Part shown: positions 1-56,251 of the stretch, one piece after another
Layout: every line of letters begins with the position of its first letter
Position numbering within the stretch: position 1 is the stretch's first letter
Source of the DNA: an uncultured Planctomycetia bacterium
GTDB taxonomy: Bacteria > Omnitrophota > Gorgyraeia > Taenaricolales > CAZCCH01
Length of the DNA: 64,000 nucleotides
Reading direction: 5' to 3'
Assembly (NCBI GenBank): GCA_964497315.1
Contig: CAZCCH010000003.1
Span: 23,346-87,345 of the forward strand
Program-made: the position numbers and the translations under genes
Notes under the pieces: model-generated
What the model was told of the DNA's origin: nothing
What the model saw: only the letters and a program-made list of their open reading frames with translations
Databases searched by the model: none

Positions 1-2
1 AA

Positions 3-3000
3 ATAACTAAGAGCATCCCTCCTGCAGAAATAACGCCTGATAGAATTGCAGTGATAACTGAAAGCTTAAATCCTATGAGCAGAAGCACAAAACGTTTACG
101 CAAAGAAGCCGCAAGAACTCTTAGACAACTTCAGCCCACCCGCTTTACTGAAGAAAGATTACTTATAGGCAGAGAAGATGAACTTGACTGGCATACGGAA
201 AGTCTCGTTTCCCCTTACCATCAAGGCAGAATTTATGAAATATTAAAATATTATGATTTTGAAGATGGCAGGCATGAATCTATTCCTTTGGCATCTTTGA
301 TATTAAGAGAGGGCAGTGCATATTTTTTATCATATGAAGCAGGTCCAGGAACTAGTAATACTTTTGAGGTTACGAGAAGAGAAGGAGAAGCAGGTCCGAG
401 AGTTACTGTAGTTGAAGGATATATTACTAACTTAACAGATTTACCTTGGTTTAAAGAGATAGTTAACAGAAGAGAATGGGCGCTTCCCAATGAGGAAGTA
501 GCATATAGATTAGCATTGTTACTTACAAGCAAGACTTCTACTACACAGTTATCTATGGCTAGGCTTTATTCTTCTACGAACACTCATAGCGGTCATTATG
601 AAAATATTAACAGGCCTGAGGGTGCATCTCTTAAGATATTAACTGAAAGAATATCTAAATACCTATCTGGGCACAAGGTAGAAGATAGAAGCGTACTTGT
701 ACATAGGTTAAGATTCGAGTCACTTGGTTTATTAGATGCGAATTTAGAAGCTTTTGTTGTTGATGTTAGTCCTGTACCAGAATCTGCTGCAAGGTTTACT
801 GAATTTAGGGAATTAGTCGAAAAATGGGAAGAGAAATTAAAGACAAGAGATCATACAGGATTAGAAGCAGACCTTGCACTATTATCATCTTATGCCGATG
901 ATGATATGGCAGATAAGGCATTGCTAAAACGCGCCCACCCATTGCTTAATAGAATGGGCAAATTAAGAGAACGCGCTAAAACAAGAGCTGCCAAACTGGC
1001 TAAAGCACAAGCTATATCTGCATCTCCAGAGGGACAGATAATTACTCACCTCAAAGGAATGGCTAAGCATCATGGTAAAAAGCTGGATGCAGTTTGGTTA
1101 AATGCCAATGGAGCTTATGAGCGTTCTTTTGACCGTGGATTTAGCAGAGTAAAGGTTCCTGGTGATGTTGCACGACGTATAAAAAGAAATGGATTAAAGG
1201 CAGTTGCTATTTCAAAGCTAAGAACCTTAACAAAAGCTAAATATGCAAAAGATGTAATGTGGATTCTAAAAAACCTTAGCAGCGTTATGTCGCAGTTGCG
1301 CAAGCAACGCGAAGAAGGAGAAGGAATTAATGCTATGCGCCTCAATAATCTAGTTGTTTATGTTTCCGGATTTGATGGTGATGATGAGATTTATGGCATA
1401 GCCATTAAAACAGCACGATCTTATGCTGCAGGTGCTCGTATTCGTCTTGGGAGAATCCCTCTTTTAGATATTAAAAAGTGGAGGCCTGTTTCTGCTGCTG
1501 CAAGGTTTACTGAAGTATCGCAAACAGGAGCAATACTACCTTTACAAACAGCAGCTAATATAGTAGCAGGCGTACTAGAACAAGATAGACCAGCTAATAT
1601 ATACCTTTATACCAAACCCGGAAGAGAAATTTTGACTTTCCAAAGAAATGAAGATGGAGACATAATAGAGGTTTCTAGGGGTAGGCATGAAACAATCGAA
1701 GATCCTTCTACTGCAGTAAGTAGGCGTCTTTCAGAATTTAGAGGTGATGATTTTCTTGTTACTACAAAACCGGCATCCAAAGAGGCTGATGTTTCCAAAG
1801 TCGAAGAGACTGCAGTTTTGACTGTTTTTCCAGAATCTGTAGCTGCGCCAAAAACTTTAGACGACGCAAGGGAGTTAGTTAGTGAAACACTACAAGTTAT
1901 AGGAACAGGATATAGCGTTGGAGGTATTCTTAGTAGTTTAGAGGCATTTACAACTGACTTTGAGGTAGAAATAACAGAAAATGAAGTTAATGACTACATA
2001 GCTTCTCTTGCATCTTTTGAGGGAGATGGTTCTAGAGAAGGTTTTAATGAAATTATTGCTGACTTAAGAGCTTGCCTATTTCAACTTAGGGGATTTACTA
2101 AAAGGACTGCAATGCCTGCAAGATATTCAGAATTAACTTTTCCTGTTGAAATTAAAGGTATTTCTGCTGTGGGAGATGTTGCATTTACTTCTGATTTTGG
2201 ACATATACAAATTGTAAATGTTAAAGGACGCTTATCACTTCAGACGAACCCTGCTGTAAACGGAAGTATTTATAAATGGAGAGAAGATGATGAAGATGGC
2301 GGGTGGTATCTCACAAGCGGAACTGGAATAAAATATATAGGTGAAAGGGAAGCACTTGGTAAAAACATACGAAAAGCAATTGATAATAGAACTAAAGCCA
2401 GATATTCAGAACAGCAAAACCTACCACAAAGACTACACCAGCAAATAATGGATGTTTTGGGGCCTCAGGGTATTACACCTGCTGCTGGCTTGAGCCTAAT
2501 GAACCTGCCAATTCCGCGCTTAGAGCGTTTAGCTGACATTGTTAGCCCGAATTGGCGTGATAACCGTGATCTAGAGGTCCTCATAGCTAGACACAGATTG
2601 GATAATGGGCTTCAGGCCTATTTAGGCGATAGATTTTTTGCCCTTATACGAGACAATGAACTTATCGTCCGAGAGCAAAAATTTGATATGACAATTTCAG
2701 GTTCTGCGATGTATGACTATATAGTTGACGCTGACGAGATTGGTGTTGAAATTCCTGAATGGCTACATTATGAAGATCTTGCGATTGCAGAACCAGGACA
2801 GGTAGATAAAGAATTAGATGCATTAGATGATTTAGGGGAAGAAGGCGATAAATTGGGGCAAGCAGTACGTGACGCCAGGACACCCGGAGGCCCTGGTCAA
2901 GCAGAAGCAATTGTTGCAGCACACCTTGGAGCTAGAGTAAGAGGAGTATTTACGCTTGGACATGATGGAGAAGAATTACTGTTACGTATGAGAAGGGCAG

Positions 3001-6000
3001 GTGTTGACGTAACTAGAGTTGAACAAGATCCAAATAAGCGCACAGCCATGACCTTTGTTGTCTCAGGGGGTGGTAAGACTGCATTTGGTCATGAAATGGG
3101 CGCAGATGATAATTTGAATCTTAATAATTTAAGGCCTGAAGATTACCAGGTGCAGGTTTTCCATGTTGGAGGCCCTGCTTTAACACCAACATATATGAGG
3201 CAGCTGCCAAAGGTTTTTGCCAATGCTAAAAGAGAAGGTGCTATAACATCTATGGATATGGTAGCTGACCCATTATGGCTTTGGAAAGAACTTAAAGACA
3301 AAGGAGACGCTGCTAAAATTTGCAGAGATTTAGATGTGCTTATGCTGAGCACAAAGGAAGTAAAATATCATGCAGATTTACTAGAAGGCCAAAGTAAAGA
3401 AGAAGCAGAGCAACTTATGATAGAAGAAGCTGAAAAGATTGTAGAAGAGCTTCTTGCAATGGGCGTTAAGACAGTTGTCTATAAGCTGGGTGAGCATGGA
3501 GCTGTAGTTGGTTCAAGAGATAGCTTGATTTTTGAAGGTGCCGATCCCACAAGGACACCTATACATCAATATGCTGACCATTTTAAGATAGAGGCAACTG
3601 GTATGGGTGATGCTATGAGTGGTACTTTTGCTACTATGTTGGCAAGAACAGATAAACACGGAGAAGATGATACGCTAAATGGTGAGATGGCCTTTGGTAC
3701 TTTAGGACAACTGATGACAGTTTCCACAGCAGCTGCTTCTATTGCCGGTGAACAGGAGGGCGGCGGAGGTGACCTTGGCCACAGCCCTAAAGAAAAACTG
3801 CTTGAACGTCATATAGAATTGCAAGGCAAACCCGAATTCCGCCGTGCCATTGCCAGAATAGATGGCAAGACCACTAGAGACCAGGCAGGATCCAGGTATT
3901 CAGAGTCTCCCAGGCTCCCACTAGGAAGAGAGGATCGCGTTGTTGTACTTGGAAAAGAAATTTTTGTAGGAAGAATACCAGGAAGAGATATTGGACAGTG
4001 GTTACCTAGGGCATTAAGTGGGCCTGCTGGAAATGTTATGAGAATAATTATGAGGGAAACTCCACCAACCGCAACCGATGCAGATGGAGTTGAAATAGCC
4101 AGGAAGTTTAGTATTCACGATACAAATTGGTATTCTCCTGAGGTTACTGCAACTACAAAAGCAGATTCTACTCCAATAAACCCAATAGAGGCAGCAAAGC
4201 AAGTATTAAAGGAAGACAAGGGTTATGAGCTAAGAAAGGACAGGTTAACTCTTTATATAATAGGTCCTGCTCGCTTTGCAGAAGGCAAGCTCTTGCTTGT
4301 GGAAAATAATGATGATGTAGTAAATACAGTAAAGAGAAGTTTGGCGCGAAGAGGTGTTGAAGAAGAAGATATTATAGTAGTTAAAACCGGAGAAGATGCA
4401 CAACAACACCTACGAGGTGCAGATATTGCAGTAGCAATAGTTGATCTTACGCTTGATGGTGACATGACAGGTGAAGAAGTACTTGCTGAAGCGCTTGGCC
4501 GTAGCATTCCAAGAGTAGTATTTAGTGGGGATGTCGACATGGATCCTTCCAGGCGAAGAAGGGTAGAGGCCCTGGCGAAAGATGCTGTTTTTGCAAAACC
4601 TCGAGATTTTACAGCGGCTATAGATAAAGCCGTTGCTTTAGGTGCTGACTCACTCAAAAGAGCAAAATTCGTAACATCCCTTAGGGAGCTTGGCTATATT
4701 GATAGCGCTATGGATGTTTCTGAAAGGCCTGAGGATGAACCCTTTAGAAAAGCACTAGTGAGATTTCTGGCATCAGAAATTGGCCCAAGGATGGCCTCAA
4801 TGCCAGTATACCCTAAAAAGGTAAAGGGTGGTAGCGGTTGGTTTAGCCTTCCAGATGAGACAAAGCGATATTACGTATCATGGTCTAGGTCAGGTCAAAC
4901 CCCACAAAAAGAAGATGTTTTTAAGTTTTCAGTAGGCGCTGATCATAAATTATTCTCCAATGTACCTAAGACTGTATTTTTAGGTGGCATGACAACTATT
5001 AAGTCTACTGAGATAGAGATAGTTGAGGATGAGTCAGCCAGATTTTCAGAGGCTGATAAACTGAGACTTCACGCTGAGGATACTGCGTTTGGGTTGAATG
5101 GTCTCGATGTGCCAGAAATTCCCCTTCCAAAACTTCCAAGGCCACAAGAGGGAGGTGAAACTTGGGCTTCTATTAGTAATCCTCCTAAACACAGGATTTG
5201 GTCAACTTCTGGTAGTTTAGCGGGACGTAGCACAAGAACTGACGAAAAAGATCCCGCCAGATTTTCAGAAAAAAGCCTGAATGAAGCGCGGACGGCTGTC
5301 CGGGAAGCTTCGGAAGTCATTTCCACCGGTATGGATACTGTCTTAAAAAGAACAGGAGAAGTTGATCCTATAATATCAGTTCAGCCTGATGGTCGTATGA
5401 TATGGACTAAAAGTGGCCGGCAATTTGTAAAATCTGATGATGGGATATGGACAACCGTTATTGACAGAGATGGCACTAAGCAGCAGTTTAGGCCTAAGTC
5501 TAATGTAGGCAGGGCATTAAATCGAGTTGTTGCTAATTGGAGAGATGAGCTTAGAGGCACATCCCCGGCACCTGAGTACGGAGGTGCCCATGAACGTGAT
5601 CGCCGGGTAGCCGCTGCCAGATATACAGAAGCTAAAGCTAATGACATAGTTGAAATTACTAGTATTGAGGGCGAGCTGGATTTAATGACAGAAACTATGC
5701 AACAGATTAGAGGGCCACTTGCAAGATTATTAAAAGAAGAAGATATAGAAATTATAGTACGAAGCGACACAATTGCTTTTGTAGGCAACGCATTTTTAAA
5801 TTCTCTTTCTATAAATACCTGTCTATTTGCCTTGCGAGAATTTCATAAAGCTGTTGCAGAACGGGATTTTGCTACTGCAAGAAGAAAGCTTACTGATGCA
5901 CAAAGGAAGCTAGCAGAAGTTAAAAGAAGCCTACCCAAGAGCCCTAAAGCCCAAGAAGAAATAGTCACCCCTCTTGAAAGGGCAACTAGGAGTTTCGATG

Positions 6001-9000
6001 CTTATCTTAAAACTGCAACTTCACGTAGGCGCTTTAGAAATGCCAAACGAGCAAGATATTCAGAAGGTCCCATAGACCAAGCAGTAGAGGTATTGAGATT
6101 TAGAACCCTTCTATTTATAGGAACGGGCAAAAAAACCAAACCAGCCGGATTAGATTCCTTGATTAGTAAAACAGATGCTAAGCCACTTGTATGTTCAGCT
6201 GTCCCAGCTGAAATTATCCATGACATAGACCGAGAAACAATTCCAGGTCCGTCACCTAAACTACCTGTCTTAGTTTTTAAAGACCAGAGTACATTTGAAA
6301 GATACTATGATGCAGCAACTGAAACACATCCAGATATCATGATGATAATACTAATGCCTACGCAAGCTAGGGGAATAGATTTTGATATTGCTTATCCGCC
6401 TTCAGGAAAAAAGGCCCCTTATATTACTATTGCAAGCAAGGCTTCAGAAGCTGCCTGGGCGAATGCGATAGTGCGTCTTGCATCAACAATTGATGTGATG
6501 CGCCAAGATGGTATATTCGGTTCTCCTGATGCAACACAAGCCGAACAAGCTAGATATTCAGAAGCTACTCTATCTGATTTAGCTGATGGATACGACATGA
6601 CTGATGCTGATAGACGCTTGGTTAGTATGCTATCTTCAGAAAGCAATGAAGCAAGAGAAACAGCAATCAGTAGGTTTACTAGGGCTTTTGGCAATGTTAA
6701 GACAATAGAGGCTAATCGCAAGAATTTAGAAGGGATGCGTGTGGTACCAACTAAGGTAATAGGCTGGTTTCATTCATCAATTGATGATTTAGTTAGTTAT
6801 AGAGGATATCGCTGCCTTATGCCTTACCATCCATTACTTTTAGAAGTAGCAAAAGCAGCCCATAAATATAATGCAGAAGAAGGAACAGATTACCAGCCAT
6901 ATGCTACTGGTCCTTGGGTTTCAGCAAGTTATGCTGGCTTAAATCCAATAGCTGATGGAAGATATAAGCCATATATATATTGGTGCGATGGCTTTGGAAG
7001 ATCATTCTCTAATTTACCAGTTGAGTTAATAACTGAGATTAAAGATATAGCTAAGCGCGATGCCCTTATCGGTCCGCTAAAAACTAACATGACTGAAGCA
7101 CAAATAGAAGATGCCTTGCTTGGTAGATTATCAGCGGATCCTACATTTTTGATGGACCGTGTTAGGCTTGCATTAATTATAGGAGATGACTTAGAAGTAG
7201 CAGGTGCTAAATTATGGGCAAGTGAGCAGGTTTCTGTAAATAGGCTATTGGAAGGAACCCTTACTTTAGCTGGCGCTGCCCCTTTAAACGCCAGGGAAGA
7301 AGGACCGAAGCTATTAGTAAAAGTTATTCATAGACTAGTTGAAGGCAGAAAGAGTTTCTGTGGAGAGTTTGAAAAACCCGGACGTTCTGTTGGTGCAAAT
7401 CTAGTGGAATTTTTAAAAGGAGCAGAACCACGAGCTGATTTAGGTGGCAGGATAACAACTGTTTTAGAAAACTTTAGAATTGATAAGGACGGTTTTGAAG
7501 GCTTAAGAGAAGCTGTCCTTAAAGACCTTGCTCAATCAAATCCAACTGAGCAATATCCATTGAATGAAAGATTGAAAGAAGCTGCAGAATCAGTTCTTCT
7601 TGCAAGGCCCGAACTTGAGACTAGGGATGCACCGCCTTTCTTTGAAGGAGGGGAAGGAATAACTAATAATCCTGATGGTAGTGTTACCTTTAATAGTTCT
7701 ATACAAAATCAAAGAGGCAGAGTAGCATTTATGGTAGATTTCCCAGAGGCTAAACACTTCCAAAGAGGAAGAAGGCCTGTTGTATTTTTATTCCATGGTC
7801 TATCAGGACATAAGACAGAGCCTCATCTTCAAGAATTTGCTGAATGGTTTAGGCAAAGAGGTTTTGCAGTTGTAAGAATAGATTTTACTAATAACAAAAT
7901 AGGTGACAAACCTAATGAAAGCGGTGGAAACTTACAAGACTTTTCCATTGCAGGTGAGATGGGTGATTTTCTATCAGTAGCCGAACACCTAATAGAAACC
8001 ATGAGTGGTTGGCTTAATTTTTCTAGAACATATGTAGGTGGTCACAGCTATGGTGGTTTAGTAGCTAGAGGAGTAAGAGAATTAGCGCGTCTAAACTCTG
8101 AATCTGCGGTTGCTCGTTTAGGTATACAAGGTGTTATAGACATGTCTGGTATTGTATCTCCTGCGGGTTCTGCTAGGAAGGCTATACAAAGAGCCCTTAT
8201 ACAAAAGGTTCTTAGTGAGGGAAGAGCCCAAGACGAAGGAGAGGCAGGAAGCATTGTTTCATATGAAGATGTGCAAGAGACATACGAAACCTGGAGACGA
8301 GACCGCAACTTAGAATTATTTGCAGGTGGACAGCGCTTCTTTCTTAGAGATGATGATGGTGCAATAGATTGGGAACAATATGATGCTGTGGATGCTTTAT
8401 CAAAATTTCCTAAAGATGTTCCTTATGTATACATAATTGGAACAGAAGATGTTGGTGTTAGGTGTACAGGTCTTGAACAAGAGAACCAAGCAAGTAGGTT
8501 TATAGCTGCAGTTGAGAGCCGTCCTCTTGGAAAAGTATTGGAATTTGATATGGAACATGCGTATCCAGGAGAGTTATTGCCAGAGATAATTAGTGCAGCA
8601 GGTGAGGCATTGCGAATTCCTGAAGAGGCAAGGTATTCAGAAAGAATTGAGCCTCTTGAGGTCCTTACTGGAAAGCAGGCAATGGAGGTTATTCTTGGTC
8701 AGCTTGAGAAAACAGAAGAACTTTATATAACCTTAGGTTATGATAATCCAAACTTTAGGGTTAGAGAAGGTAGCATTGTATGCAATGGAAAAGGAGTTGA
8801 GGGATTCCCAGGGTCTGAGATCTTTAAACACTTAAGGGGAGTGCATAACTATTTTTATCAGTCTCAAATTAGACCAGGTGATAGCCCTACAAACTATCGT
8901 ACTGCATGGAGTCTTAACTCAATTGCATTGACTGCCTTAGAAAGAATAGATGCCTCTGAATTAGGAGCAGAACAAATAGAAATACTTAATATCCTAAAGG

Positions 9001-12000
9001 TAGCAGCTGTTAGCGTAGATAAGTTTTTTGGAGAGAGCTTTTCTGATCCTGCACGCTTTAGTGAACCAAAAGATGCAGAGGCTCTGGAGAAGAAAAGAGA
9101 AGGACTTAAAGCAGATGTAAAGGCAATAGCAGATGCAAGGGAAAGAGTACTAGAGGTATTAATGAAAAGCAAAACAGCGGATGGCAAACCTATGACAGAA
9201 GATATCACAGGGTTGATACCTCAATGCAAGTTAACTAAAGATTTACCCGGAGGCATAATGGCATTTCTTCTTTCTTTAGTTGGAAAAGAAAATAATGTAT
9301 TATTAGCTTACTCAGGAGGAAGTATACTATCATTAGTATATAACGAAGGAGCTTCTGATGGTGAATGGGATACTTCAACAGAATTACTTGATGAATACAA
9401 AGCTTCTACAGAAAAACCTATTCTTACAAGCACAAGAAGAGCTATATTAGCTAATCCAGATACAGAAATGTCAACAGATGATTTACTCAAAGGTGGTGCA
9501 ACTGAAGATGAGATTATAGCATGGGCAAGATATAACAGATTTAAGATGCGTCCTATAGGAGGTAATAATTACGCTGTAACAGGAAGATCACAGGAATCAG
9601 CACGCTTTACAGAAGGAACTGTTATAAAGAATGTAAGATTTTTTCCAAGCCAAGACTTGCCTACCATGCTTTTTGAGATATCAAGAGAAAATAGTTTTGA
9701 ATCTTTAGAAGTTCACTATAGCACAAAGAAGGCAGGAGGGAAATGGGGAGGTTATACTATCTTTAAGCCAACTATAGAAACAGGGGCATTCTGGAGGGTA
9801 GCCCATGTTACATTAAGCTCGCTATCAGCCAATTCTAAATGGGCATTCTTTTCCAGAGGAAAGACATTAATTTTATTAGCAGATGTCCCAGGTGATGAAG
9901 CGCAGGTAAAAGAACAGCTTGACAGTATGCTTAAGGGCGTACGACTAGGAGACCCTTATGAAATACTAGAACCATCATTAGTAGAAGAAATACCTCCTGA
10001 TAGTAAACAAGCTAGGTTTACAGAAACCACCATACCATTAAAGGAATTAATGCAAAAAGAAGATCTTGAAAGAGGCGCTTATTTTGTAACACAAGACCTG
10101 TCTCCAGAGCTAATAGGTATTGCTATAGAACTACTTCAAGAACCTAAGTTAGCAATTCTAGCAGAAGAAGGTGCTACTTTTACAGCAAAACATGAACCAG
10201 GAGTTGCGAATGATACCATAACATCTATTTCAATTGATGTACCCCTTACCAATAGACTTGTTAAGGCAGCTGCTTCTGGAATCACTCTTCATAGATTAAA
10301 GATTTCTCAACATATAGACCCTGATACAGGTATGAACCACTTAGAATTTGCAATAGCAAATCCAGCAGCAGAGACCTTTCCTGAATTTGCAGGTTTTACA
10401 GCTGTTGATGATGATGCAGCTCTTTTAGGGTTAGCAAAGGGTTTTTCTAATGTCATGAGAGCAGATAGAGATATTAGGTCTTTGCTTGCTGAAACTGTAA
10501 CAGAAGAAGAAACCGAAGATGTAATACCATTCGAGGAAAGAGCCCGTGAGGCAGGAGTTGAACTTGTTGAGCCAGAAAAATGGACTGATATTACAGAAGA
10601 GTTAAAGACTATTGCAAGGACAATTATAGAAAACGTTGGTCTAAGACTTTCCCGACCAAAACTTCTTTTAAGTTCTACAAGGTCAATGGTGGAACAACCG
10701 AGTTTGAGCGATGGTGAGGCAATTTCTAATGTAGTTATCCTTGCCTATTTTGCTAATGGAATACCGTGCGATTTTAGTGCAGAGCAACAAAAGGATACTA
10801 ACTGGATAGCATTTTCCGCAGTTGATCAGCGTTCTCCTTATGAGGTTGGTAGGGTTTTAATGCCTCAAGGTCTTTCCGGTCTTACTGCATTTACACAAGC
10901 CGCATTTGCAATAGCAGAGCATAATGCGTTTTCACCTGAGGAAGAACAGGCAAGGTTTACAGAGAGTCGACAATATGTTATGCCTGAAGGTGAAGCTAGG
11001 GCACTTACTGAAGATGTGGACACAGGAGGAGTAATAAGGAAATATGGAGATGGAATATTGACTCCTAGTGAAATAGACGAACTTGAAAAAGTAGAAAAAG
11101 CAGCAGTGTTTGATATTAAATTCCTAAGAGAGGGCAGTGCAGAAGAAATGTTAGTTTTTCATTGCTATGGCTACCTTCATAATTCCAGATTAGGGACACC
11201 AAAAGGTGGTGTGGCTATAGGAGATGAGAAGGCCGTAACTTCAGAGAAGATTAAGAAAAAGGCCTTTTTGATGACCATCAAAGATGCCCTTGCTGGTTTC
11301 TTCCATGCGGGATATCCATTTGGCCTAGGCGGGGCTAAATTTGGTATAGTGATGCCTGAAGGCATTAAGATATCAGATTTAACGGATATAGAATTGGAAA
11401 GACTAGCAAGAACATGGACAAAGGCACTTTATGAAAGAAACTTAATAGGACCAGATATATATGTTCCTGCGACTGACATAGGTTTAGATGAAAAAAGAGG
11501 GCCAAAATTTATGGCCTGGGTTGCAAGTGAATACAGAAATATAGTAGACGAAGATCACCCTGAAGTAGTTACTAGCAAAACCGTAGTAGGAGATGATTTT
11601 GGGAATATTGACCCTACCGGTGGAATAGAAGGAAAGGTAGGGGCAACGAAGCATGGCGGATTGTATGTTATCGAAGAAGTATTAAAAGCAGAGAATCTTC
11701 AAAGATTATCAAAACGATTTCGTGCGCTCGAAGGTCTTACTCCAGGGTTAGTAGGTAAGGAGGTTGCTGTTCAAGGTGCTGGCAAGGTAGCCTTAATTGC
11801 TGAATTGCTTCAGCAGACGAGCGAGGCGACTGTAAAAGCATGGAGCGATGAAGATGGCGGGTATTATGAAGAAAAAGGTTTAAATGTGGCTGAATTGTGT
11901 AGACCAGAAGGATTTGTTGCTGCTGGAGAATTTTTAAGGACAAAACCAGGCTTTCCTTTAACTAATTCTATTACCAATGTGGCATTATTGAAACTACCTG

Positions 12001-13733
12001 TAGATATATTGGTCTTAGGGGCAACAGAAGGCCAGATTACAAAAGAAAACGCAGGCGAGGTTCAAGCAAAAATAGTCCTCTGTCTTGCCAATGATCCAAT
12101 TACTGCAGAGGCAGAAGAGATTCTAACTGAAAGAGGCATATTGGTCATACCTGATTTTGTGGCAAACATAGGAGCAGTAAGCGTTTCTTGTTTTGAGATG
12201 TTACAAAATAAAGAAGGAAGAGCATGGACTTTAAATGAGACAAGAGGAAGACTAAAACATCTTATGCTAAGGAATCTCGGTGAGGTAATGGCTATTTCTG
12301 AAGAGGAAAATATAGGCTTAACTGCTGCTGGCTACAGGTTGGTTTTAAAGAGATGGAAGGAAGGCAATAGGGCTAAAGCTCCGGTAAGCCAGATAGAGAT
12401 TGGTAAATTGCCAGACTATTCCATGGCCGCCAGATTTACAGAGGGGACCATTACAGAGCACATTGCTTTTCTACAGAGACAAGCACGCAGTAGAGACGAA
12501 AGCAAAAAAAGTGCTATTGGATTTGGAATATCATATTATAAACCTTCACCTGCAACGCAACGGGTGCTTTTAGCAGATAGTGTTAGACATAGCAGACCTG
12601 GTATGCATGATGGTAGGCTTCAGGAAGAACCCAGATATGCAGTTTGGAAAGAAGGACATGAAATTTACCTAGTAGGCGATATTACGCATGCTGAGCATCA
12701 GCCAAACGAAAGATTGGTGCAACGTTTAAAGGACGCTAATCTTAGAGGTATTTGTATTACTCGCCAAGCACTTCTTGATAAAAGCGTACAACCAGCTCTA
12801 AAATGGATGCTTGGAAATATCGCAAGGGCTTCAAAGGATTTAGACGGTCATGGTCAGCAAGTAACTATGCCAAAGAAGGAGCCAAAAGTAACAATTGAAC
12901 TTGCCCTTGTAGACAAAGAAGATTTTTATTTGTTTGTAAGTAAAGTTAAGGATTCTCATTCCACCAGATTTACAGAAACGACTAAGCTATCGACAGACAC
13001 ACCATCTATAAGTCCAACAGATGCATTCCTTGAATTAAGGAGAGATTTCCCTGATGCAACATTAGCAAAAGGACCATTTAAGATAGTACTTCCAGCAGCA
13101 ATGTTTGCTGAAAATGCAGACTCTGAAACAATAGGTAGCTCTTTAGCTGAAATAGCAGAAGTTGCTGCCGCAAGATATGCAACAGCAATTACTGTAGAGG
13201 TAGTCACTGAGGAGAATTTATTTAATCCAAGAGCCCATAGACTAGCAGAGAAAATAAACGCTAGCTTACATCAAGGAAGAGACATCTCAGGGCTTCTTAC
13301 TCAAGTAAGAAATGAAACAACCTTTACCCTTGGAAGTCAAGCACACCTTGAGAGCCTACTAAACCAACTAAGCCTAGGTCTTAATGTCCAATGGAAGGGT
13401 ATTGCATGGGATGATTTAAGAATAAATGAAACAAACACAGATAGACTAATAACAGCAGTTGATTTGATTTTTAGCTTAATAGAGCTTTATGCAGGAAAGA
13501 ATACCCGTAGCTTAGTACCAGAATTAATGGAAGGTGTTAGGCAAAGGTTAGCTGCCTTAGATATAACAGGCTATGATGATGATTCAATATTAAGCCTTGT
13601 ATCAGATGACTTGGAAGCAGCTATAAATGCAGCAAGAAAACTACGTAAACTCCTACCTTCTGCTGAAAAAGCTAGCTTTGGCAGATACTTCATGAGGCTA
13701 CAACAGTCTCTAGAATTCAGAAGGCAGATTTAA
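3..13733 (+). CDS. Giant multidomain protein, 5'-partial. The ORF is open to window position 3 with no in-frame stop upstream. It is at least 4577 aa with the first in-window start candidate a GTG at 51. It is punctuated by about 20 copies of [AST]-R-[FY]-[ST]-E.
   Basis: The reading frame is uninterrupted from the window edge to the TAA at 13731-13733, which is impossible by chance at this AT content. Codon usage is protein-like. Embedded kinase, receiver, hydrolase and dehydrogenase signatures are listed as separate features. A C/G-rich hairpin terminator follows. Confidence 0.8.
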   Translation: MTKSIPPAEITPDRIAVITESLNPMSRSTKRLRKEAARTLRQLQPTRFTEERLLIGREDELDWHTESLVSPYHQGRIYEILKYYDFEDGRHESIPLASLILREGSAYFLSYEAGPGTSNTFEVTRREGEAGPRVTVVEGYITNLTDLPWFKEIVNRREWALPNEEVAYRLALLLTSKTSTTQLSMARLYSSTNTHSGHYENINRPEGASLKILTERISKYLSGHKVEDRSVLVHRLRFESLGLLDANLEAFVVDVSPVPESAARFTEFRELVEKWEEKLKTRDHTGLEADLALLSSYADDDMADKALLKRAHPLLNRMGKLRERAKTRAAKLAKAQAISASPEGQIITHLKGMAKHHGKKLDAVWLNANGAYERSFDRGFSRVKVPGDVARRIKRNGLKAVAISKLRTLTKAKYAKDVMWILKNLSSVMSQLRKQREEGEGINAMRLNNLVVYVSGFDGDDEIYGIAIKTARSYAAGARIRLGRIPLLDIKKWRPVSAAARFTEVSQTGAILPLQTAANIVAGVLEQDRPANIYLYTKPGREILTFQRNEDGDIIEVSRGRHETIEDPSTAVSRRLSEFRGDDFLVTTKPASKEADVSKVEETAVLTVFPESVAAPKTLDDARELVSETLQVIGTGYSVGGILSSLEAFTTDFEVEITENEVNDYIASLASFEGDGSREGFNEIIADLRACLFQLRGFTKRTAMPARYSELTFPVEIKGISAVGDVAFTSDFGHIQIVNVKGRLSLQTNPAVNGSIYKWREDDEDGGWYLTSGTGIKYIGEREALGKNIRKAIDNRTKARYSEQQNLPQRLHQQIMDVLGPQGITPAAGLSLMNLPIPRLERLADIVSPNWRDNRDLEVLIARHRLDNGLQAYLGDRFFALIRDNELIVREQKFDMTISGSAMYDYIVDADEIGVEIPEWLHYEDLAIAEPGQVDKELDALDDLGEEGDKLGQAVRDARTPGGPGQAEAIVAAHLGARVRGVFTLGHDGEELLLRMRRAGVDVTRVEQDPNKRTAMTFVVSGGGKTAFGHEMGADDNLNLNNLRPEDYQVQVFHVGGPALTPTYMRQLPKVFANAKREGAITSMDMVADPLWLWKELKDKGDAAKICRDLDVLMLSTKEVKYHADLLEGQSKEEAEQLMIEEAEKIVEELLAMGVKTVVYKLGEHGAVVGSRDSLIFEGADPTRTPIHQYADHFKIEATGMGDAMSGTFATMLARTDKHGEDDTLNGEMAFGTLGQLMTVSTAAASIAGEQEGGGGDLGHSPKEKLLERHIELQGKPEFRRAIARIDGKTTRDQAGSRYSESPRLPLGREDRVVVLGKEIFVGRIPGRDIGQWLPRALSGPAGNVMRIIMRETPPTATDADGVEIARKFSIHDTNWYSPEVTATTKADSTPINPIEAAKQVLKEDKGYELRKDRLTLYIIGPARFAEGKLLLVENNDDVVNTVKRSLARRGVEEEDIIVVKTGEDAQQHLRGADIAVAIVDLTLDGDMTGEEVLAEALGRSIPRVVFSGDVDMDPSRRRRVEALAKDAVFAKPRDFTAAIDKAVALGADSLKRAKFVTSLRELGYIDSAMDVSERPEDEPFRKALVRFLASEIGPRMASMPVYPKKVKGGSGWFSLPDETKRYYVSWSRSGQTPQKEDVFKFSVGADHKLFSNVPKTVFLGGMTTIKSTEIEIVEDESARFSEADKLRLHAEDTAFGLNGLDVPEIPLPKLPRPQEGGETWASISNPPKHRIWSTSGSLAGRSTRTDEKDPARFSEKSLNEARTAVREASEVISTGMDTVLKRTGEVDPIISVQPDGRMIWTKSGRQFVKSDDGIWTTVIDRDGTKQQFRPKSNVGRALNRVVANWRDELRGTSPAPEYGGAHERDRRVAAARYTEAKANDIVEITSIEGELDLMTETMQQIRGPLARLLKEEDIEIIVRSDTIAFVGNAFLNSLSINTCLFALREFHKAVAERDFATARRKLTDAQRKLAEVKRSLPKSPKAQEEIVTPLERATRSFDAYLKTATSRRRFRNAKRARYSEGPIDQAVEVLRFRTLLFIGTGKKTKPAGLDSLISKTDAKPLVCSAVPAEIIHDIDRETIPGPSPKLPVLVFKDQSTFERYYDAATETHPDIMMIILMPTQARGIDFDIAYPPSGKKAPYITIASKASEAAWANAIVRLASTIDVMRQDGIFGSPDATQAEQARYSEATLSDLADGYDMTDADRRLVSMLSSESNEARETAISRFTRAFGNVKTIEANRKNLEGMRVVPTKVIGWFHSSIDDLVSYRGYRCLMPYHPLLLEVAKAAHKYNAEEGTDYQPYATGPWVSASYAGLNPIADGRYKPYIYWCDGFGRSFSNLPVELITEIKDIAKRDALIGPLKTNMTEAQIEDALLGRLSADPTFLMDRVRLALIIGDDLEVAGAKLWASEQVSVNRLLEGTLTLAGAAPLNAREEGPKLLVKVIHRLVEGRKSFCGEFEKPGRSVGANLVEFLKGAEPRADLGGRITTVLENFRIDKDGFEGLREAVLKDLAQSNPTEQYPLNERLKEAAESVLLARPELETRDAPPFFEGGEGITNNPDGSVTFNSSIQNQRGRVAFMVDFPEAKHFQRGRRPVVFLFHGLSGHKTEPHLQEFAEWFRQRGFAVVRIDFTNNKIGDKPNESGGNLQDFSIAGEMGDFLSVAEHLIETMSGWLNFSRTYVGGHSYGGLVARGVRELARLNSESAVARLGIQGVIDMSGIVSPAGSARKAIQRALIQKVLSEGRAQDEGEAGSIVSYEDVQETYETWRRDRNLELFAGGQRFFLRDDDGAIDWEQYDAVDALSKFPKDVPYVYIIGTEDVGVRCTGLEQENQASRFIAAVESRPLGKVLEFDMEHAYPGELLPEIISAAGEALRIPEEARYSERIEPLEVLTGKQAMEVILGQLEKTEELYITLGYDNPNFRVREGSIVCNGKGVEGFPGSEIFKHLRGVHNYFYQSQIRPGDSPTNYRTAWSLNSIALTALERIDASELGAEQIEILNILKVAAVSVDKFFGESFSDPARFSEPKDAEALEKKREGLKADVKAIADARERVLEVLMKSKTADGKPMTEDITGLIPQCKLTKDLPGGIMAFLLSLVGKENNVLLAYSGGSILSLVYNEGASDGEWDTSTELLDEYKASTEKPILTSTRRAILANPDTEMSTDDLLKGGATEDEIIAWARYNRFKMRPIGGNNYAVTGRSQESARFTEGTVIKNVRFFPSQDLPTMLFEISRENSFESLEVHYSTKKAGGKWGGYTIFKPTIETGAFWRVAHVTLSSLSANSKWAFFSRGKTLILLADVPGDEAQVKEQLDSMLKGVRLGDPYEILEPSLVEEIPPDSKQARFTETTIPLKELMQKEDLERGAYFVTQDLSPELIGIAIELLQEPKLAILAEEGATFTAKHEPGVANDTITSISIDVPLTNRLVKAAASGITLHRLKISQHIDPDTGMNHLEFAIANPAAETFPEFAGFTAVDDDAALLGLAKGFSNVMRADRDIRSLLAETVTEEETEDVIPFEERAREAGVELVEPEKWTDITEELKTIARTIIENVGLRLSRPKLLLSSTRSMVEQPSLSDGEAISNVVILAYFANGIPCDFSAEQQKDTNWIAFSAVDQRSPYEVGRVLMPQGLSGLTAFTQAAFAIAEHNAFSPEEEQARFTESRQYVMPEGEARALTEDVDTGGVIRKYGDGILTPSEIDELEKVEKAAVFDIKFLREGSAEEMLVFHCYGYLHNSRLGTPKGGVAIGDEKAVTSEKIKKKAFLMTIKDALAGFFHAGYPFGLGGAKFGIVMPEGIKISDLTDIELERLARTWTKALYERNLIGPDIYVPATDIGLDEKRGPKFMAWVASEYRNIVDEDHPEVVTSKTVVGDDFGNIDPTGGIEGKVGATKHGGLYVIEEVLKAENLQRLSKRFRALEGLTPGLVGKEVAVQGAGKVALIAELLQQTSEATVKAWSDEDGGYYEEKGLNVAELCRPEGFVAAGEFLRTKPGFPLTNSITNVALLKLPVDILVLGATEGQITKENAGEVQAKIVLCLANDPITAEAEEILTERGILVIPDFVANIGAVSVSCFEMLQNKEGRAWTLNETRGRLKHLMLRNLGEVMAISEEENIGLTAAGYRLVLKRWKEGNRAKAPVSQIEIGKLPDYSMAARFTEGTITEHIAFLQRQARSRDESKKSAIGFGISYYKPSPATQRVLLADSVRHSRPGMHDGRLQEEPRYAVWKEGHEIYLVGDITHAEHQPNERLVQRLKDANLRGICITRQALLDKSVQPALKWMLGNIARASKDLDGHGQQVTMPKKEPKVTIELALVDKEDFYLFVSKVKDSHSTRFTETTKLSTDTPSISPTDAFLELRRDFPDATLAKGPFKIVLPAAMFAENADSETIGSSLAEIAEVAAARYATAITVEVVTEENLFNPRAHRLAEKINASLHQGRDISGLLTQVRNETTFTLGSQAHLESLLNQLSLGLNVQWKGIAWDDLRINETNTDRLITAVDLIFSLIELYAGKNTRSLVPELMEGVRQRLAALDITGYDDDSILSLVSDDLEAAINAARKLRKLLPSAEKASFGRYFMRLQQSLEFRRQI
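2900..3700 (+). other. PfkB/ribokinase-family carbohydrate-kinase-like module inside the giant ORF
   Basis: Translation reads ...GVDVTRVEQDPNKRTAMTFVV...VVYKLGEHGAVVG...IEATGMGDAMSGTFA... The DTxGAGD-type anion-hole motif (ATGMGDAM, nt ~3598-3621) and the overall ribokinase-fold order of motifs are present. Confidence 0.55.
4246..4660 (+). other. CheY-like receiver (REC) module inside the giant ORF
   Basis: Translation reads KLLLVENNDDVV...ADIAVAIVDLTLDGDMTGEEVLAEAL...IPRVVFSGDVD...VFAKP. An acidic pair, a candidate phospho-acceptor Asp and a conserved Lys lie at REC-typical spacing. Confidence 0.5.
7770..8575 (+). other. alpha/beta-hydrolase (esterase/lipase-like) module inside the giant ORF
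   Basis: Translation reads RPVVFLFHGLSGH...YVGGHSYGGLVA (GxSxG nucleophile elbow at nt ~8040-8060)...IIGTEDVGV...FDMEHAYPGE. A Ser/Asp/His triad is present in canonical order. Confidence 0.6.
11200..12270 (+). other. Glu/Leu/Phe/Val amino-acid dehydrogenase-like module inside the giant ORF
   Basis: Translation reads GYPFGLGGAKFGI (GGxK catalytic-Lys loop, nt ~11326-11349)...YVPATDIG...PTGGIEGKVGAT...GKEVAVQGAGKVA (Rossmann GxGxxA/G)...DILVLGAT...LCLANDPIT...ILVIPDFVANIGAV. The motif order matches the GDH/LeuDH superfamily. Confidence 0.6.
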
Positions 13734-13749
13734 GGTTTAAAGTACCTTA

Positions 13750-13778
13750 CCCCCTCTCAAAAAGAGGGGGTATTTTTT
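13750..13778 (+). terminator. Rho-independent terminator after the giant ORF
   Basis: The 8-bp stem ccccctct / agaggggg has a 5-nt loop and is followed by tatttttt. Confidence 0.65.
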
Positions 13779-13935
13779 ACATAATTGCCTACAAACAAAT
13801 AAGTTATAGCAAAATACCTATTTTCTGTGTAATAATATATATATTTAAGTGTTATATATAGTAAGACTAAAAACTTATGAAAAACCTTTAGTAAAACTAG
13901 CAAAAAACAGCAAGAATCAGGGGGGGCTCAAAAAA

Positions 13936-16900
13936 ATGTTTAGGCAAAAACTTATGAATTCACATTTATTTAGAATAATATCACTAGTAATATTAATGGC
14001 CTTTACAGGTTCAATAGCATATCCAGGGCTTAGCTTTGCTGAGCCTTTTTCTTTTGAAGACACTTTAAGGCCAAAAAGTACAGCAGAAAATGAAGTAGCA
14101 AGGCAGGAGCTATTAAATGCTTTTGGTGTAGAAGAAGACGTAGAAGAAATAGCAGAAGAACCAAAGATTACACAGTTTCCGCTTTCTCCACAAGATAAAA
14201 CCCTTGGTATGGTTGCTAGATTTTCAGAGATGCAAAGGCTATGGGCTTCCCCTGATAGCGGCGAAGACGTATTCTATGATGAAAAGACAAGGGGTTTACG
14301 TGTTCACAAAAAAAGTTTAAGAGCAGGCGTTGCACGCCTAACCAGGCTTGGTGGAGTAAAACAGATACCTTTATTTTCACTTCTTGCTGATTTTATAAGA
14401 GAGCATGCAAGTGAATTTACACTAACTCCCGATGGAACAAGTTTAGAAAGGGTTACCGCAGACACTCCAGACTTTGGGTATAAACTTTATCTGCAGGCTA
14501 CCAAAGACGATGCTGCAGCAGTTTTAAGAGATTTGTTACCCTATTTATTTGAACCTAAGGGTTTTGATGAGGATATATTTTTCAGGTGTGTAGTTAATGA
14601 GGATCAACTAGCTCAAGTACCTGACGGTACGCTTATTACAATATACCCACCAGGCAATAGCATGATAGAACAAAGGTTAAATGCATTCACAATAGCCAAG
14701 GCCTTAGATGACCTTTTCCTAAACGCAAATTTAGAGATGGATCCTTCCGCAGGGCTACCCGCGCAACCATACAGAAAGGTAGTTGGAGAGAGTGGAAGAG
14801 TCCGTGCAAAATGGGATTCGATGACTGAGGAAGCTGCAGATGCCTTAGTCCAAATACGTACTGAAGCCGCTTTTTTAGACGCCAGGAACAAGTCGCCGCT
14901 TAACAATGTAGAAGTGGCTACTCCCCTGGAAGATTATTTGGCCGAATTTGGAGCTGAGCAACTGGCAACTTTCTTGCCTATATTACCATCTGAAGATGGT
15001 GAGGAGGTCGCCAGGTTTACAGAGAGTAATAAAACAGCAGAAGCAGTAGTAGAGGATGACGAGGACATTTCTGGTTTACCTTCATACACTGAAAGCGAAT
15101 GGCAGATAGCAACCGAAGCTTTGGGCAGAGAGCCAGTACTAAGCCGAGCAGAAGATGAAATAGGAATGATGATGACCATGGTGGCGCAGCATGGCTGGAC
15201 CTTGGAAGAGGCGGCACGCTATTACGCAAAGGCAGAACAAGAAGCAGCCACTCGCGAAAGCTTATCAGATACCAACGCCTTGCCAGAATGGCAGGATGAG
15301 GAAACCACGTCGACATACACTGAAGACGAATGGCGTACAGTAACCACCGAATTCATGGAAGTTCTAGGCCGAGCACCAATAGTGAGTTGGAGAGAAGATG
15401 AGATGTGGCAAGTTAAGCAATATGCGCAGGAAGGGAAAACTGGGCTAAGGGCTGCAGCGCGCAAATACGCAGAGGAAGAACTAGCATATAGGAGACGCGG
15501 CATGCAGACAGAGCGAGATGAGATGGGAGAAGTCGCCAGGTTTACAGAGGCGGTGGCGATAGATGCAAATGGTGCCCACCCTCTCATCGCTATAGCTAAA
15601 CACGCCAAAAGCAATGGAGACTTTTTTGCTGCACGGGATGGAGACTTTTTTACTGGACAGGGAAGAATAATGAAAGTTACAAATAGTACTAGCACAGCCA
15701 CGCGATTTTGGCTTGCAAGGGCAAAAGGTGTTAAATATGGCGTTAAGATAAATGCAACCATGGAAGGATATCAGGCGCATACGAGATGGTATTTCGATCA
15801 TGATGATACTCTTTATGTGCGAATGGGGCCCCGCGATTACGGAGAGTCTGTAGGAGATCGGAGGCGCATAGCAGCAGCCAGGAAAATTTGCGAAGCAGCA
15901 GCAGCTGCAGAGGTCAGTCAGGCACGCTACGCGGAAGCATCTGAAGTTCCGCCAGCTGAGCCTGTTATGACAGTTATGAAAGAAGCTGGCCTTGGTACAA
16001 GAGTAGTTAGGATACCTGATGAGTTTGTACCTTTAGCCACAGACAAAACTCCTGTGAGAGTACTAAAAGAAGCTGGTTTTGCTACGAGATTGGTAAGTAA
16101 AACACCTGCAAAGCCTACTGATGTAGAAGATGCCGATGCAACCCGCTTCTCTGAAGCTACAACCTTACCACAAGTTAATAGGATTACAGCCAGTAGAATT
16201 ACCCAAGCCACAACTGGTCTAACAGTAGATGAGCTAGTAGGAATAATCAACTCTGGAGTTGGTTTACAAGCAGCAATTGAAGACATAGCAAACATGAGTG
16301 AGTTTGACATAGACTTAGCCTTGCCAGAAGTAAGAAAACAAGTAAATGATGCTGCATGGGGTAACTTAATAGATACTATTGAGAACCAAGCACAAACCGA
16401 CCTCACACAATTAAAACCTCGAATAGCACGCAGCCCATGGGGTAGTAATTATACACGGCTTTCAGAAGCTGCAAGCAAAGTGCAAGGAGGTAATTTCTTT
16501 AGCGTTGTACTTAAATCAAGCCTTGGCAGCATACTTGATGACAGGGCCATATTAAGAGAAAGGGCCGCTGAATATGACATTACGCTACAAGATATTACTG
16601 TTGCAACAATAGATAACCTTGAAGCTGCTGTCCAGCAAATGGCTTCTGAATTAAACCAAAAAGGTACCCAAAGAGCATGCTTTTTCTTAGGTGCAATACC
16701 TAAAGAATTACAAGATAGAGTTACAAAGTTAGCAGAACAACTAAGAGAGCAAAACCCAAATATAATAAACTTAAACATTATATTTGCACCAACACCTTTA
16801 GAAAATCCAATAACCGCCCAACCTGATGTAGTATCTTACATGCAGGCATTTACAGAAGGTTTCTCAAGCAATCAGCTAGTTACACTCTTAACTAGAGGAT

Positions 16901-17013: not shown

Positions 17014-17046
17014 ACCCTCTCCCCAAAAGGGAGGGGGTTTTTTTAC
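17014..17046 (+). terminator. Rho-independent terminator after the secreted partner gene
   Basis: The 10-bp stem accctctccc / gggagggggt has a caaaa loop and a T8 run. The hairpin sequence closely resembles the one at 13750. Confidence 0.65.
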
Positions 17047-17075
17047 TTGCATTCCACCCCTCTTTTAACTATAAT
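17047..17075 (+). promoter_or_regulatory. sigma70-like promoter (TTGCAT-17-TATAAT)
   Basis: ttgcat lies at 17047-17052, the spacer is 17 nt, and tataat lies at 17070-17075. This is about 45 nt upstream of a strong RBS (aggagg) and the ATG at 17121. Confidence 0.5.
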
Positions 17076-17120: not shown

Positions 17121-17339
17121 ATGGGTAAGCTTTTAAGTATTATAGGTGGCACAGTTGCAGTAGTATTAGGTATTGTAGCCTTGATGTCCTGGTGGTGGTC
17201 ATTTGTTGAGCTTTTAAAAGGCGTGATTCCGTGTCTTCTCATAATGGGTGGTCTTATTGCGCTATTTGCGGGTGTAAGCGAGATAAAAGATGCACTGACA
17301 TGCAAAAAGGAAGAGAAAAAAGAAGAACCAGCAGCATAA
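17121..17339 (+). CDS. Small two-helix membrane protein (72 aa)
   Basis: A strong SD sequence (aggaggtgag) precedes it. Two hydrophobic helices and a Lys/Glu-rich tail are predicted. A hairpin plus T7 run follows. Confidence 0.5.
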   Translation: MGKLLSIIGGTVAVVLGIVALMSWWWSFVELLKGVIPCLLIMGGLIALFAGVSEIKDALTCKKEEKKEEPAA

Positions 17340-26812: not shown

Positions 26813-26862
26813 TATGGTGGATAGAAAAAATTTAACTAACAATATGTTGCATGGAGGCACAA

Positions 26863-33781: not shown

Positions 33782-33782
33782 T

Positions 33783-49485: not shown

Positions 49486-49498
49486 CAAAGGAGTGAAA

Positions 49499-56164: not shown

Positions 56165-56251
56165 GCCGGAGTGATGAAATTGGCAGACATGCGGGTCTCA
56201 AAAACCCGTGGGGTTAAACCCGTGTCGGTTCGACTCCGACCTCCGGCACCA
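56165..56251 (+). tRNA. tRNA-Leu(CAA), class II with a long variable arm, CCA encoded
   Basis: The acceptor is gccggag / ctccggc, the D-stem is atg / cat, the anticodon stem is cgggt / acccg with loop ctCAAaa, there is a long variable arm, and the T-arm is gtcgg-ttcgact-ccgac. Confidence 0.8.

Follow-up and report, generated by a model that had tools for sequence, protein, structure and literature searches.

A strict pentapeptide at the module junctions of two polyprotein-like, predicted export substrates from an Omnitrophota bacterium

A giant gene and its partner with a common leader

We analyzed a 64,000-nucleotide stretch of contig CAZCCH010000003.1 from an uncultured Omnitrophota bacterium (the window), which opens with a giant gene and a downstream partner gene whose products are both punctuated by the pentapeptide [AST]R[FY][STA]E (Table 1). 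The full giant gene, of about 5,293 codons, starts some 2.1 kb before the first nucleotide of the window. A 90.5-kb Joint Genome Institute metagenome contig, to which the window is 100% identical, carries a giant product of 5,272 amino acids (aa), here called P0002, with N-terminal HEAT repeats; P0002 was returned by an exhaustive HMMER search, and over its last 4,576 residues it matches the window translation without a difference. In the upstream DNA of a second assembly (L034), the giant frame runs 21 codons beyond the P0002 start, to MFSQKFTNSYLCKILSITILMAFIGSLIAPELSYA followed by GAFSFEDTLRP. The first-pass annotation of this DNA had begun the giant open reading frame (ORF) at nucleotide 51 and had regarded only the partner as secreted. 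Both points need correction: the frame is open to the window start, and the part lying before that position (window 1-50 plus upstream, L034 8399-10000) encodes a signal peptide, a leader, two motif copies and a near-identical HEAT-repeat block. The HEAT-repeat copy number varies by assembly, giving products of 5,168, 5,272 and 5,367 aa, and one assembly has a run of N there. These assembly variants of the giant (P0154-P0158) differ solely in HEAT-repeat copy number and are uninformative on motif conservation.

The N-termini of the giant and the partner are homologous over about 80 residues (43% identity, E 8e-12). Specifically, the partner begins with MFRQKLMNSHLFRIISLVILMAFTGSIAYPGLSFA followed by EPFSFEDTLRP, and both signal peptides consist of a basic n-region, a hydrophobic core of 18-20 residues and a small-x-Ala end. 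Each signal peptide is the sole strongly hydrophobic segment of its protein, the Rossmann fold of the glutamate dehydrogenase (GDH) module in the giant apart. The leader of the giant and that of the partner both end exactly at the first ARFSE, so that, by sequence, this first motif copy is placed where a propeptide junction would be. The leader shared by the two proteins and the export signals on both are established at the sequence level, and, given the Sec-form N-termini and the homologous leader, both proteins are predicted export substrates with a common pro-region. The DNA similarity between the two genes begins at the start codon, and their 5' untranslated regions are unrelated. Additionally, each gene is followed by a terminator-like GC hairpin with a T run, and the close similarity of the two hairpins suggests two separate transcription units with related terminators.

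The pentapeptide and its place between modules

Translation of both frames yielded 24 exact copies of the motif in the window, 19 in the giant frame and five in the partner, reproducing every coordinate of the first-pass annotation. The full-length giant protein holds 21 exact copies, and with the partner the total over both full-length proteins (6,287 aa) is 26, where 0.12 would be expected (Poisson P = 2.5e-51). For the window portion, the expectation from composition is 0.106 copies, and 2,000 shuffles gave a mean of 0.10 and a maximum of 3. No copy occurs in the remaining 37 window ORFs of at least 150 aa (about 15,000 aa) or in the other five reading frames of the window, and unrelated material contained none in 66,405 aa of proteins and one in 286,880 six-frame residues of unrelated loci. 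With the background in other proteins essentially zero, the compositional bias that had been named as a possible objection is not supported. As for degenerate copies, SRFTR in the giant and TRLSE in the partner were recovered as listed, while ARLTR in the partner had been missed. A single CRFTE lies at aa 255-259 of an orphan 532-aa membrane-associated protein (ORF 39231-40829, plus strand); its position 1 is mismatched, its context is ordinary, and we take it as chance. Literature searches found no description of this motif.

Arg at position 2 and Glu at position 5 are each invariant (26/26 sites). Position 1 is Ala in 22/26 sites and Ser or Thr in 4/26, position 3 carries Tyr in place of Phe at 8/26 sites and Leu in two degenerate copies, and position 4 is Ser or Thr in 24/26 and Ala in 2/26 (ARFAE and ARYAE). 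The residue preceding the motif is frequently A, P, Q or S, and the residue following Glu is A, S, G or T in 17/26 sites. The codons vary synonymously (Ala as GCA/GCC/GCT, Arg as AGA/AGG/CGC, Ser as TCA/AGT/TCT, Glu as GAA/GAG), a tally that bears out the earlier view that selection acts on the peptide. The flanks had been described as largely unconserved, and indeed they show no similarity at the DNA or protein level. Likewise, BLASTP of the giant and the partner against themselves found no mutual similarity among the inter-motif segments. Synonymous codon variation between unrelated segments means that each site is kept at the peptide level; moreover, since the segments are dissimilar, the sites are not copies of a duplicated linker and each is maintained independently. 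A composition artefact, a duplicated linker cassette or a DNA-level repeat as the source of the motif is thus refuted by the excess over expectation (0.12 vs 26) and over the shuffles (at most 3), the dissimilar flanks, the varied codons, and the empty frames and genes elsewhere. The data support the motif as a peptide-level signal at the module junctions of a polyprotein-like protein.

The recognized modules fit between the motif copies. In Pfam coordinates, the PfkB, alpha/beta-hydrolase and GDH domains each lie wholly between consecutive motifs, in agreement with the first-pass description, and no motif copy lies inside any recognized domain core, so that the objection raised there about buried motifs finds no support. 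The receiver had been placed right after ARFAE; it does start four residues on, with position 2 of the profile aligned to the fourth residue past the motif Glu, but its Pfam match is weak and below the gathering score. When the full-length solved GDHs 7mfm and 3k92 (424 aa) are aligned to the GDH module, residue 1 falls on or just after the motif Glu, and the C-terminus lies about 14 residues ahead of the next motif. Behind the PfkB module comes a hydrophilic, Gly-rich tail that runs into SRYSE. Since the GDH and receiver modules start 0-4 residues past the motif Glu, at the point where their free-standing homologues begin, a cut at the motif would give natural N-termini.

The sequence around the 26 sites is also distinctive in composition. 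In the ten residues upstream of the motif, the hydrophobic fraction is 0.21 vs 0.31, a value as low being reached by 0/5,000 random site sets; the three residues downstream are mildly hydrophobic-depleted (p about 0.01), and from +4 onward the composition is unremarkable. Judged by composition, the upstream stretch is linker-like. The recurrent anatomy is [module]-[short hydrophilic linker, about 10 residues]-A-R-(F/Y)-(S/T)-E-[next module], with fragments of 68-688 aa between the putative cut points. The motif, its statistics and its junction position are thereby established from the sequence, and the unrelated segments, the domains lying between motifs, the GDH start after a motif and the hydrophilic upstream linker all uphold the original proposal of a junction signal in a polyprotein-like protein. 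Single modules were also scanned against Pfam at E up to 1, which gave weak Response_reg and RamC_N matches only; the latter falls in the partner module 14230-15009 and is below cut-off (E 9e-4, 19 bits vs 27-bit).

Table 1 Features of the giant and partner genes, ordered by position (window coordinates)
Feature	Position (nt)	Strand	Protein	Remark
ARFSE			giant, P0002 aa 78	upstream of window; end of leader
ARFTE			giant, P0002 aa 294	upstream of window
Giant gene	1..13733	+	giant	last 4,576 codons and stop; ORF open at window start
TRFTE	138..152	+	P0002 aa 742	closes HEAT-repeat module
ARFTE	789..803	+	P0002 aa 959	
ARFTE	1500..1514	+	P0002 aa 1196	
ARYSE	2118..2132	+	P0002 aa 1402	
ARYSE	2397..2411	+	P0002 aa 1495	ahead of PfkB-containing module
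PfkB carbohydrate-kinase domain	2850..3662	+	giant	Pfam E 2.3e-17
SRYSE	3891..3905	+	P0002 aa 1993	after Gly-rich hydrophilic linker trailing PfkB
ARFAE	4269..4283	+	P0002 aa 2119	directly before receiver domain
Receiver (Response_reg)	4293..4601	+	giant	weak: E 3.4e-4, 21 bits vs 30.2-bit gathering cut-off
ARFSE	5037..5051	+	P0002 aa 2375	
ARFSE	5256..5270	+	P0002 aa 2448	
ARYTE	5616..5630	+	P0002 aa 2568	
ARYSE	6051..6065	+	P0002 aa 2713	
ARYSE	6549..6563	+	P0002 aa 2879	
SRFTR (degenerate)	6669..6683	+	P0002 aa 2919	possibly a decayed site or chance match
Alpha/beta-hydrolase	7773..8462	+	giant	nucleophile elbow GHSYG; weakly similar to peptidase families S33 and S9
ARYSE	8628..8642	+	P0002 aa 3572	
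ARFSE	9051..9065	+	P0002 aa 3713	sole copy followed by Pro
ARFTE	9600..9614	+	P0002 aa 3896	
ARFTE	10011..10025	+	P0002 aa 4033	
ARFTE	10950..10964	+	P0002 aa 4346	Glu aligns to residue 1 of free-standing glutamate dehydrogenases
ELFV_dehydrog_N and ELFV_dehydrog (glutamate/leucine/phenylalanine/valine dehydrogenase)	11136..12362	+	giant	E 3.9e-14 and 2.3e-42
ARFTE	12429..12443	+	P0002 aa 4839	about 14 residues beyond end of GDH fold
TRFTE	12963..12977	+	P0002 aa 5017	ahead of last module, 251 aa
Terminator-like GC hairpin and T run	13748..13782	+		right after giant gene; TACCCCCTCTC...GAGGGGGTA
Partner gene	13936..16983	+	partner	about 1,015 aa; likely start ATG 13936 (MFRQKL...); mechanical ORF from GTG 13849
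Sec-type signal peptide	13936..14040	+	partner	MFRQKLMNSHLFRIISLVILMAFTGSIAYPGLSFA; near-identical to that of the giant
Leader common to partner and giant	14041..14229	+	partner	EPFSFEDTLRP...ITQFP...ARFSE; 43% identity, E 8e-12; roughly 60 aa
ARFSE	14215..14229	+	partner	end of leader
ARLTR (degenerate)	14332..14346	+	partner	
ARFTE	15010..15024	+	partner	
ARFTE	15535..15549	+	partner	
ARYAE	15922..15936	+	partner	
TRFSE	16141..16155	+	partner	
TRLSE (degenerate)	16453..16467	+	partner	
Terminator-like GC hairpin and T run	17014..17048	+		after partner gene; ACCCTCTCCCC...GGGAGGGGGT; resembles the hairpin of the giant gene

The partner matches only itself among 5.8 billion clustered proteins, no homologue was found for the N-terminal 930 aa of the giant ORF in the window, and five orphan modules at aa 2860-3640 (counted from nucleotide 51) have no homologue among 1.84 billion representatives by exhaustive HMMER. 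This search, with aa 2860-3970 as its query, returned the protein itself, and all other matches lie in the GDH part. The closest GDH relative (47% identity) belongs to P0003, a signal-peptide-bearing giant multi-enzyme protein of 3,140 aa, whose gene adjoins another giant gene, cut by the contig end and coding for more than 3,291 aa (L007 1-19423, Logan ERR7850085). P0003 carries a DTLGPP box after its signal peptide, which resembles the EDTLRP box here. No C-terminal domain common to the giant, the partner, P0003 and the neighbour of P0003 was found. Scans of genome and metagenome contigs with the N-terminal modules found nothing, and scans of genome and metagenome collections with the leader or a degenerate FSFEDTLRP DNA pattern gave either nothing or P-type ATPases that share FxFEDTLRP by chance. 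A syntenic relative exists (L036; LeuRS 74% identical).

Processing, docking or modification

We give about an even chance to the reading that a secreted bacterial polyprotein is processed at the motif, the cut most likely falling after Glu. The two genes would then encode two Sec-exported polyproteins, each with a signal peptide and the shared pro-leader of about 60 residues, followed by a series of mutually unrelated modules that fold independently; with 21 of these in the giant, 5 in the partner and the two leaders, the fragments would number 28. These modules would include the HEAT-repeat, PfkB kinase, receiver, alpha/beta-hydrolase and glutamate-dehydrogenase-like units. A single sequence-specific endopeptidase would recognize the pentapeptide in trans, or possibly the alpha/beta-hydrolase module would do so in cis, and this enzyme would remove the leader and separate the modules. 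The likeliest scissile bond would be the one after Glu, with Glu at P1, Ser/Thr at P2, Phe/Tyr at P3, Arg at P4 and a small residue at P1'. We infer that a protease reads the signal, that this bond is cut, and that the cut is made in the periplasm, at the cell surface or in a target cell.

Several features of the locus point this way. One strict pentapeptide kept at 26 junctions of two co-located export substrates implies that a single sequence-specific reader must exist, and unrelated segments with independently kept sites are what is expected when many junctions satisfy one reader. Glu abutting the module, with a small residue next to it, matches the grammar of Glu/Gln-specific polyprotein proteases. 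Finally, GDH enzymes are hexamers, and a hexameric GDH is hard to reconcile with burial in a 5,300-aa chain, so that release would make functional sense.

A number of observations weigh against this reading. A search of the giant and the partner for GDSGG (chymotrypsin-like), GxCG, HExxH and further protease signatures found none apart from the GHSYG of the hydrolase, Pfam shows no significant peptidase family in either protein, and no protease gene lies within 10 kb upstream or 47 kb downstream. The alpha/beta-hydrolase, the sole hydrolase candidate in cis, is no less similar to esterases and dienelactone hydrolases than to peptidases, its best matches being esterase-like. The ARFSE copy followed by Pro (the only such site) would not be cut by most proteases. 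Single-sequence AlphaFold2 models of window 4227-6104 and 14230-15009 reached a mean predicted local distance difference test score of 41 and 37, too poor to show motif exposure directly. Neither the motif nor any other pentapeptide enriched by k-mer analysis is present in P0003 or its giant neighbour, which indicates that giant multi-enzyme proteins need no such signal. No orthologue turned up in the searches. Enzymes that depend on NAD or ATP have no obvious role outside the cytoplasm when placed behind a Sec signal peptide. Cleavage at the junctions is the leading but unproven mechanism.

The motif could instead be a short linear docking or recognition motif on a chain that stays intact, its binding partner being an export chaperone, a module-by-module translocation machine or the giant's own HEAT-repeat module. 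We consider this unlikely, while giving it a real minority share. The motif statistics and the exposed-junction position speak for docking as much as for cleavage, the two proteins share a leader and are both predicted to be exported, and no protease was found in the two proteins or their flanks. Extended peptides are also common ligands of HEAT repeats, and the giant has a module of this fold. However, a docking motif needs no exact placement at module N-termini or at the leader end, and strictness over five residues at every junction and nowhere else is more typical of processing sites; in addition, no candidate binding partner was identified. Post-translational modification of the Ser/Thr (or of the Arg) is less probable still, a slim chance in our estimate. 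Such modification, for example phosphorylation, possibly followed by beta-elimination by a lyase-like module, would regulate or cross-link the modules. Ser/Thr does occupy position 4 in nearly all sites, and the sole further hint is the weak RamC_N match in the partner module, a Pfam family for the N-terminal domain of RamC, which we take to be a class III lanthipeptide synthetase. Yet Ala replaces Ser/Thr at two otherwise perfect sites, the RamC_N match scores 19 bits vs a 27-bit cut-off and its AlphaFold2 model is unusable, the Pfam scans found no protein-kinase domain (PfkB is a sugar-kinase family), and modification alone leaves the junction placement unexplained. The first-pass annotation had listed cleavage, modification and docking side by side. 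The three are not told apart by the present data, and its basophilic-kinase option is weakened by the two Ala sites.

Within the processing reading itself, the cut might fall at another bond, either after Phe/Tyr (chymotrypsin-like) or after Arg (trypsin-, gingipain- or Kex2-like), which we regard as rather unlikely, slightly more so than docking. Position 3 holds Phe/Tyr, with Leu in the degenerate copies ARLTR and TRLSE; these are the residues that chymotrypsin-like enzymes classically accept at P1, and the resulting small-x-F↓x-E pattern parallels the mycoplasma S/T-X-F↓X-D/E (PMC3322551). Arg, for its part, is invariant in 26/26 sites and had been proposed earlier as P1. It is not favoured over Glu, because Glu is equally invariant, the modules begin right after it, and the next residue is small in 17/26. 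Moreover, a cut after Arg would leave an N-terminal Phe/Tyr and a cut after Phe/Tyr a two-residue stub.

Genomic setting, known systems and implications

Outside the giant and partner genes, the window consists of ordinary bacterial chromosome, whose genes encode a CCA-adding enzyme, a permease, PolX, NikR, an OprB porin, CbiMNQO, an intein-containing ribonucleotide reductase, ApgM, ATP-grasp ligases, a histidine kinase, folate and purine enzymes, PilT, AccA, LeuRS, ComEC, BamD, LptE and HolA, and the named best matches of LeuRS (64-68% identity) are all Omnitrophota/Omnitrophica metagenome-assembled genomes. Upstream of the giant lie genes for a TonB-dependent receptor, a peptide deformylase, PEPCK and an AbiEii protein; the AbiEii-domain gene, with a small neighbouring ORF, stands just upstream on the opposite strand (L034 6408-7822). 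The G+C content of the giant and partner genes is 0.39-0.46 vs 0.33-0.39 in the surroundings. The raised G+C together with the AbiEii neighbour may reflect an acquired island, or the G+C may merely follow from a composition rich in Ala, Arg, Gly and Glu.

A phage or jumbo-phage origin, in which the motif would be a prohead-protease site, was rejected: megablast against 50,697 phage records found nothing, and the genes nearby are of housekeeping type. One ORF, 18807-20132 (plus strand), matches PHROG 27398 'tail protein' (E 3e-137); it encodes a 441-aa multi-pass permease (Pfam Xan_ur_permease), and the label looks artefactual. A Borg-like element with tandem repeats was likewise rejected, since a tandem-repeat search of the window found three trivial repeats only, nothing relevant to the motif.

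Further observations concern the neighbouring genes. The 39 long genes taken as real are all on the plus strand, GC skew is positive across the 64 kb, and the few long minus-strand ORFs overlap plus-strand genes. After the partner, ORF 17121-17339 (plus strand) encodes a 72-aa membrane protein and overlaps the start of the CCA-adding enzyme gene. It has a precomputed match to PF26391 (MamI), which we take to be a magnetosome membrane protein; our own Pfam scan did not return that family, giving only a weak TerC match. LAGLIDADG inteins interrupt the ribonucleotide reductase (26851-30459) and GTP cyclohydrolase I (49493-51043), and the syntenic relative (L036 4878-5438) carries an intein-free GTP cyclohydrolase I of 186 aa. 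At 32786-35955 (plus strand), a lysine-2,3-aminomutase-like radical SAM gene comes after a tandem pair of D-Ala-D-Ala-ligase-like ATP-grasp genes, and the three may form a small cluster for amino-acid or peptide modification. The tRNA genes Leu-CAA (56165-56251) and Ala-GGC (57010-57083) lie on either side of a small helix-turn-helix ORF.

Among known systems, viral polyproteins offer one comparison. In sapovirus, the 3C-like protease cleaves E/G, Q/G and E/A junctions whose P4 residue is Phe/Tyr or Arg (PMC3433708). The giant and the partner resemble such polyproteins as long chains of unrelated modules in which a junction Glu abuts the next module, the residue behind this Glu is small, and an aromatic residue or Arg stands slightly upstream. 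Unlike viral polyproteins, they are encoded on a cellular Omnitrophota chromosome and carry Sec export signals, and no 3C-like or other protease domain was detected in them. Their motif, five fixed positions over 26 sites, is far stricter than typical viral junctions, and cleavage here is putative.

MARTX and large clostridial toxins are autoprocessed at Leu by a cysteine protease domain (CPD) activated by inositol hexakisphosphate (InsP6), and the cuts made by the MARTX CPD fall in unstructured stretches that separate the effectors (PMC2900308), a precedent for the release of enzyme modules from a secreted bacterial giant. MARTX toxins reach 5,208 aa (PMC5218395). The giant is similar to them as a secreted bacterial protein of comparable size with unrelated enzyme modules and junctions that are linker-like by composition. 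One MARTX effector is itself an alpha/beta-hydrolase. The giant differs from MARTX in giving no CPD match (Pfam, E up to 1 on single modules), in having HEAT as its sole repeat family with no RTX or glycine-rich repeats, in carrying an N-terminal Sec signal and, at the C-terminus, nothing that resembles a type I secretion signal, and in pairing a five-residue junction motif, rather than a single Leu, with modules of metabolic type.

The P97/P102 adhesins of M. hyopneumoniae are cut at S/T-X-F↓X-D/E in disordered regions by a protease that was unknown as of 2012 (PMC3322551). These too are exported bacterial proteins; TRFTE, TRFSE and SRYSE fit the mycoplasma template, and 26/26 sites fit x-x-[FY]-x-E. 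However, S/T stands first in 4/26 sites here, the only ones counted as a strict fit, and Ala in 22/26, Tyr replaces Phe at 8/26, and Arg and Glu are invariant where the mycoplasma motif is free or loose; no P97/P102 homology was seen among the Pfam and PDB matches, and the phylum is an unrelated diderm one. Prohead proteases of giant phages cut after Glu at A-X-E, and T4-type and giant-phage sites also include S/A/G-X-E and L/I-X-E (PMC5694885). The likeness here lies in a putative cut after Glu in a short motif, several sites per substrate and the putative removal of an N-terminal propeptide; the differences lie in the missing phage context, the longer motif and Phe/Tyr at P3.

The nearest setting is that of the Omnitrophota giants, very long signal-peptide proteins that mix regulatory and metabolic enzyme domains (10.1101/2023.11.21.568195; 10.64898/2026.06.07.730766). 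For these, post-translational cleavage has been hypothesized, but both papers give no cleavage points and describe such information as missing, and according to West-Roberts et al. 2023 this gap blocked the analysis (10.1101/2023.11.21.568195). A recent survey mentions neither cleavage nor linkers. The giant shares with them the phylum, a length of several thousand residues, the signal peptide and the mixture of enzyme and regulatory domains. It departs from them in that the hypothesized C39 and S8 proteases are absent, its length is at the small end of their range, transmembrane helices are lacking apart from the signal peptide, and an explicit junction motif is present. Together, the pair works most like a protease-processed polyprotein yet is a member of no family examined, and it belongs to the loosely defined giant secreted proteins of Omnitrophota. 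Polyproteins with junction signals are known; what is new here is a cellular, Sec-exported polyprotein-like pair with an unusually strict five-residue junction signal and no recognizable protease.

Whether the giants of Omnitrophota and other bacteria act as single chains or as cut pieces is an open issue, to which this locus offers 26 candidate cut points with a strict consensus. If the processing reading is true, it would provide the first explicit cleavage-point map of any giant protein from Omnitrophota, show that a cellular organism uses polyproteins, and point to a new sequence-specific protease that could become a tool enzyme with a five-residue site; enrichment of a junction pentapeptide would then be a method for dissecting other giant proteins. 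The broader proposition, to which we assign somewhat less than an even chance, is a virus-like strategy in a free-living or episymbiotic bacterium, in which two Sec-exported precursors would be cut at 26 sites into about 28 proteins by a protease outside the recognized signature families. The products would include cytoplasm-type enzymes (glutamate dehydrogenase, sugar kinase, receiver) and would perhaps form a stoichiometric effector set for a host or prey cell. The routing of dehydrogenase, kinase and receiver modules through Sec poses a puzzle, and the Sec export of NAD- and ATP-dependent enzymes bears on how these ultra-small bacteria interact with their hosts.

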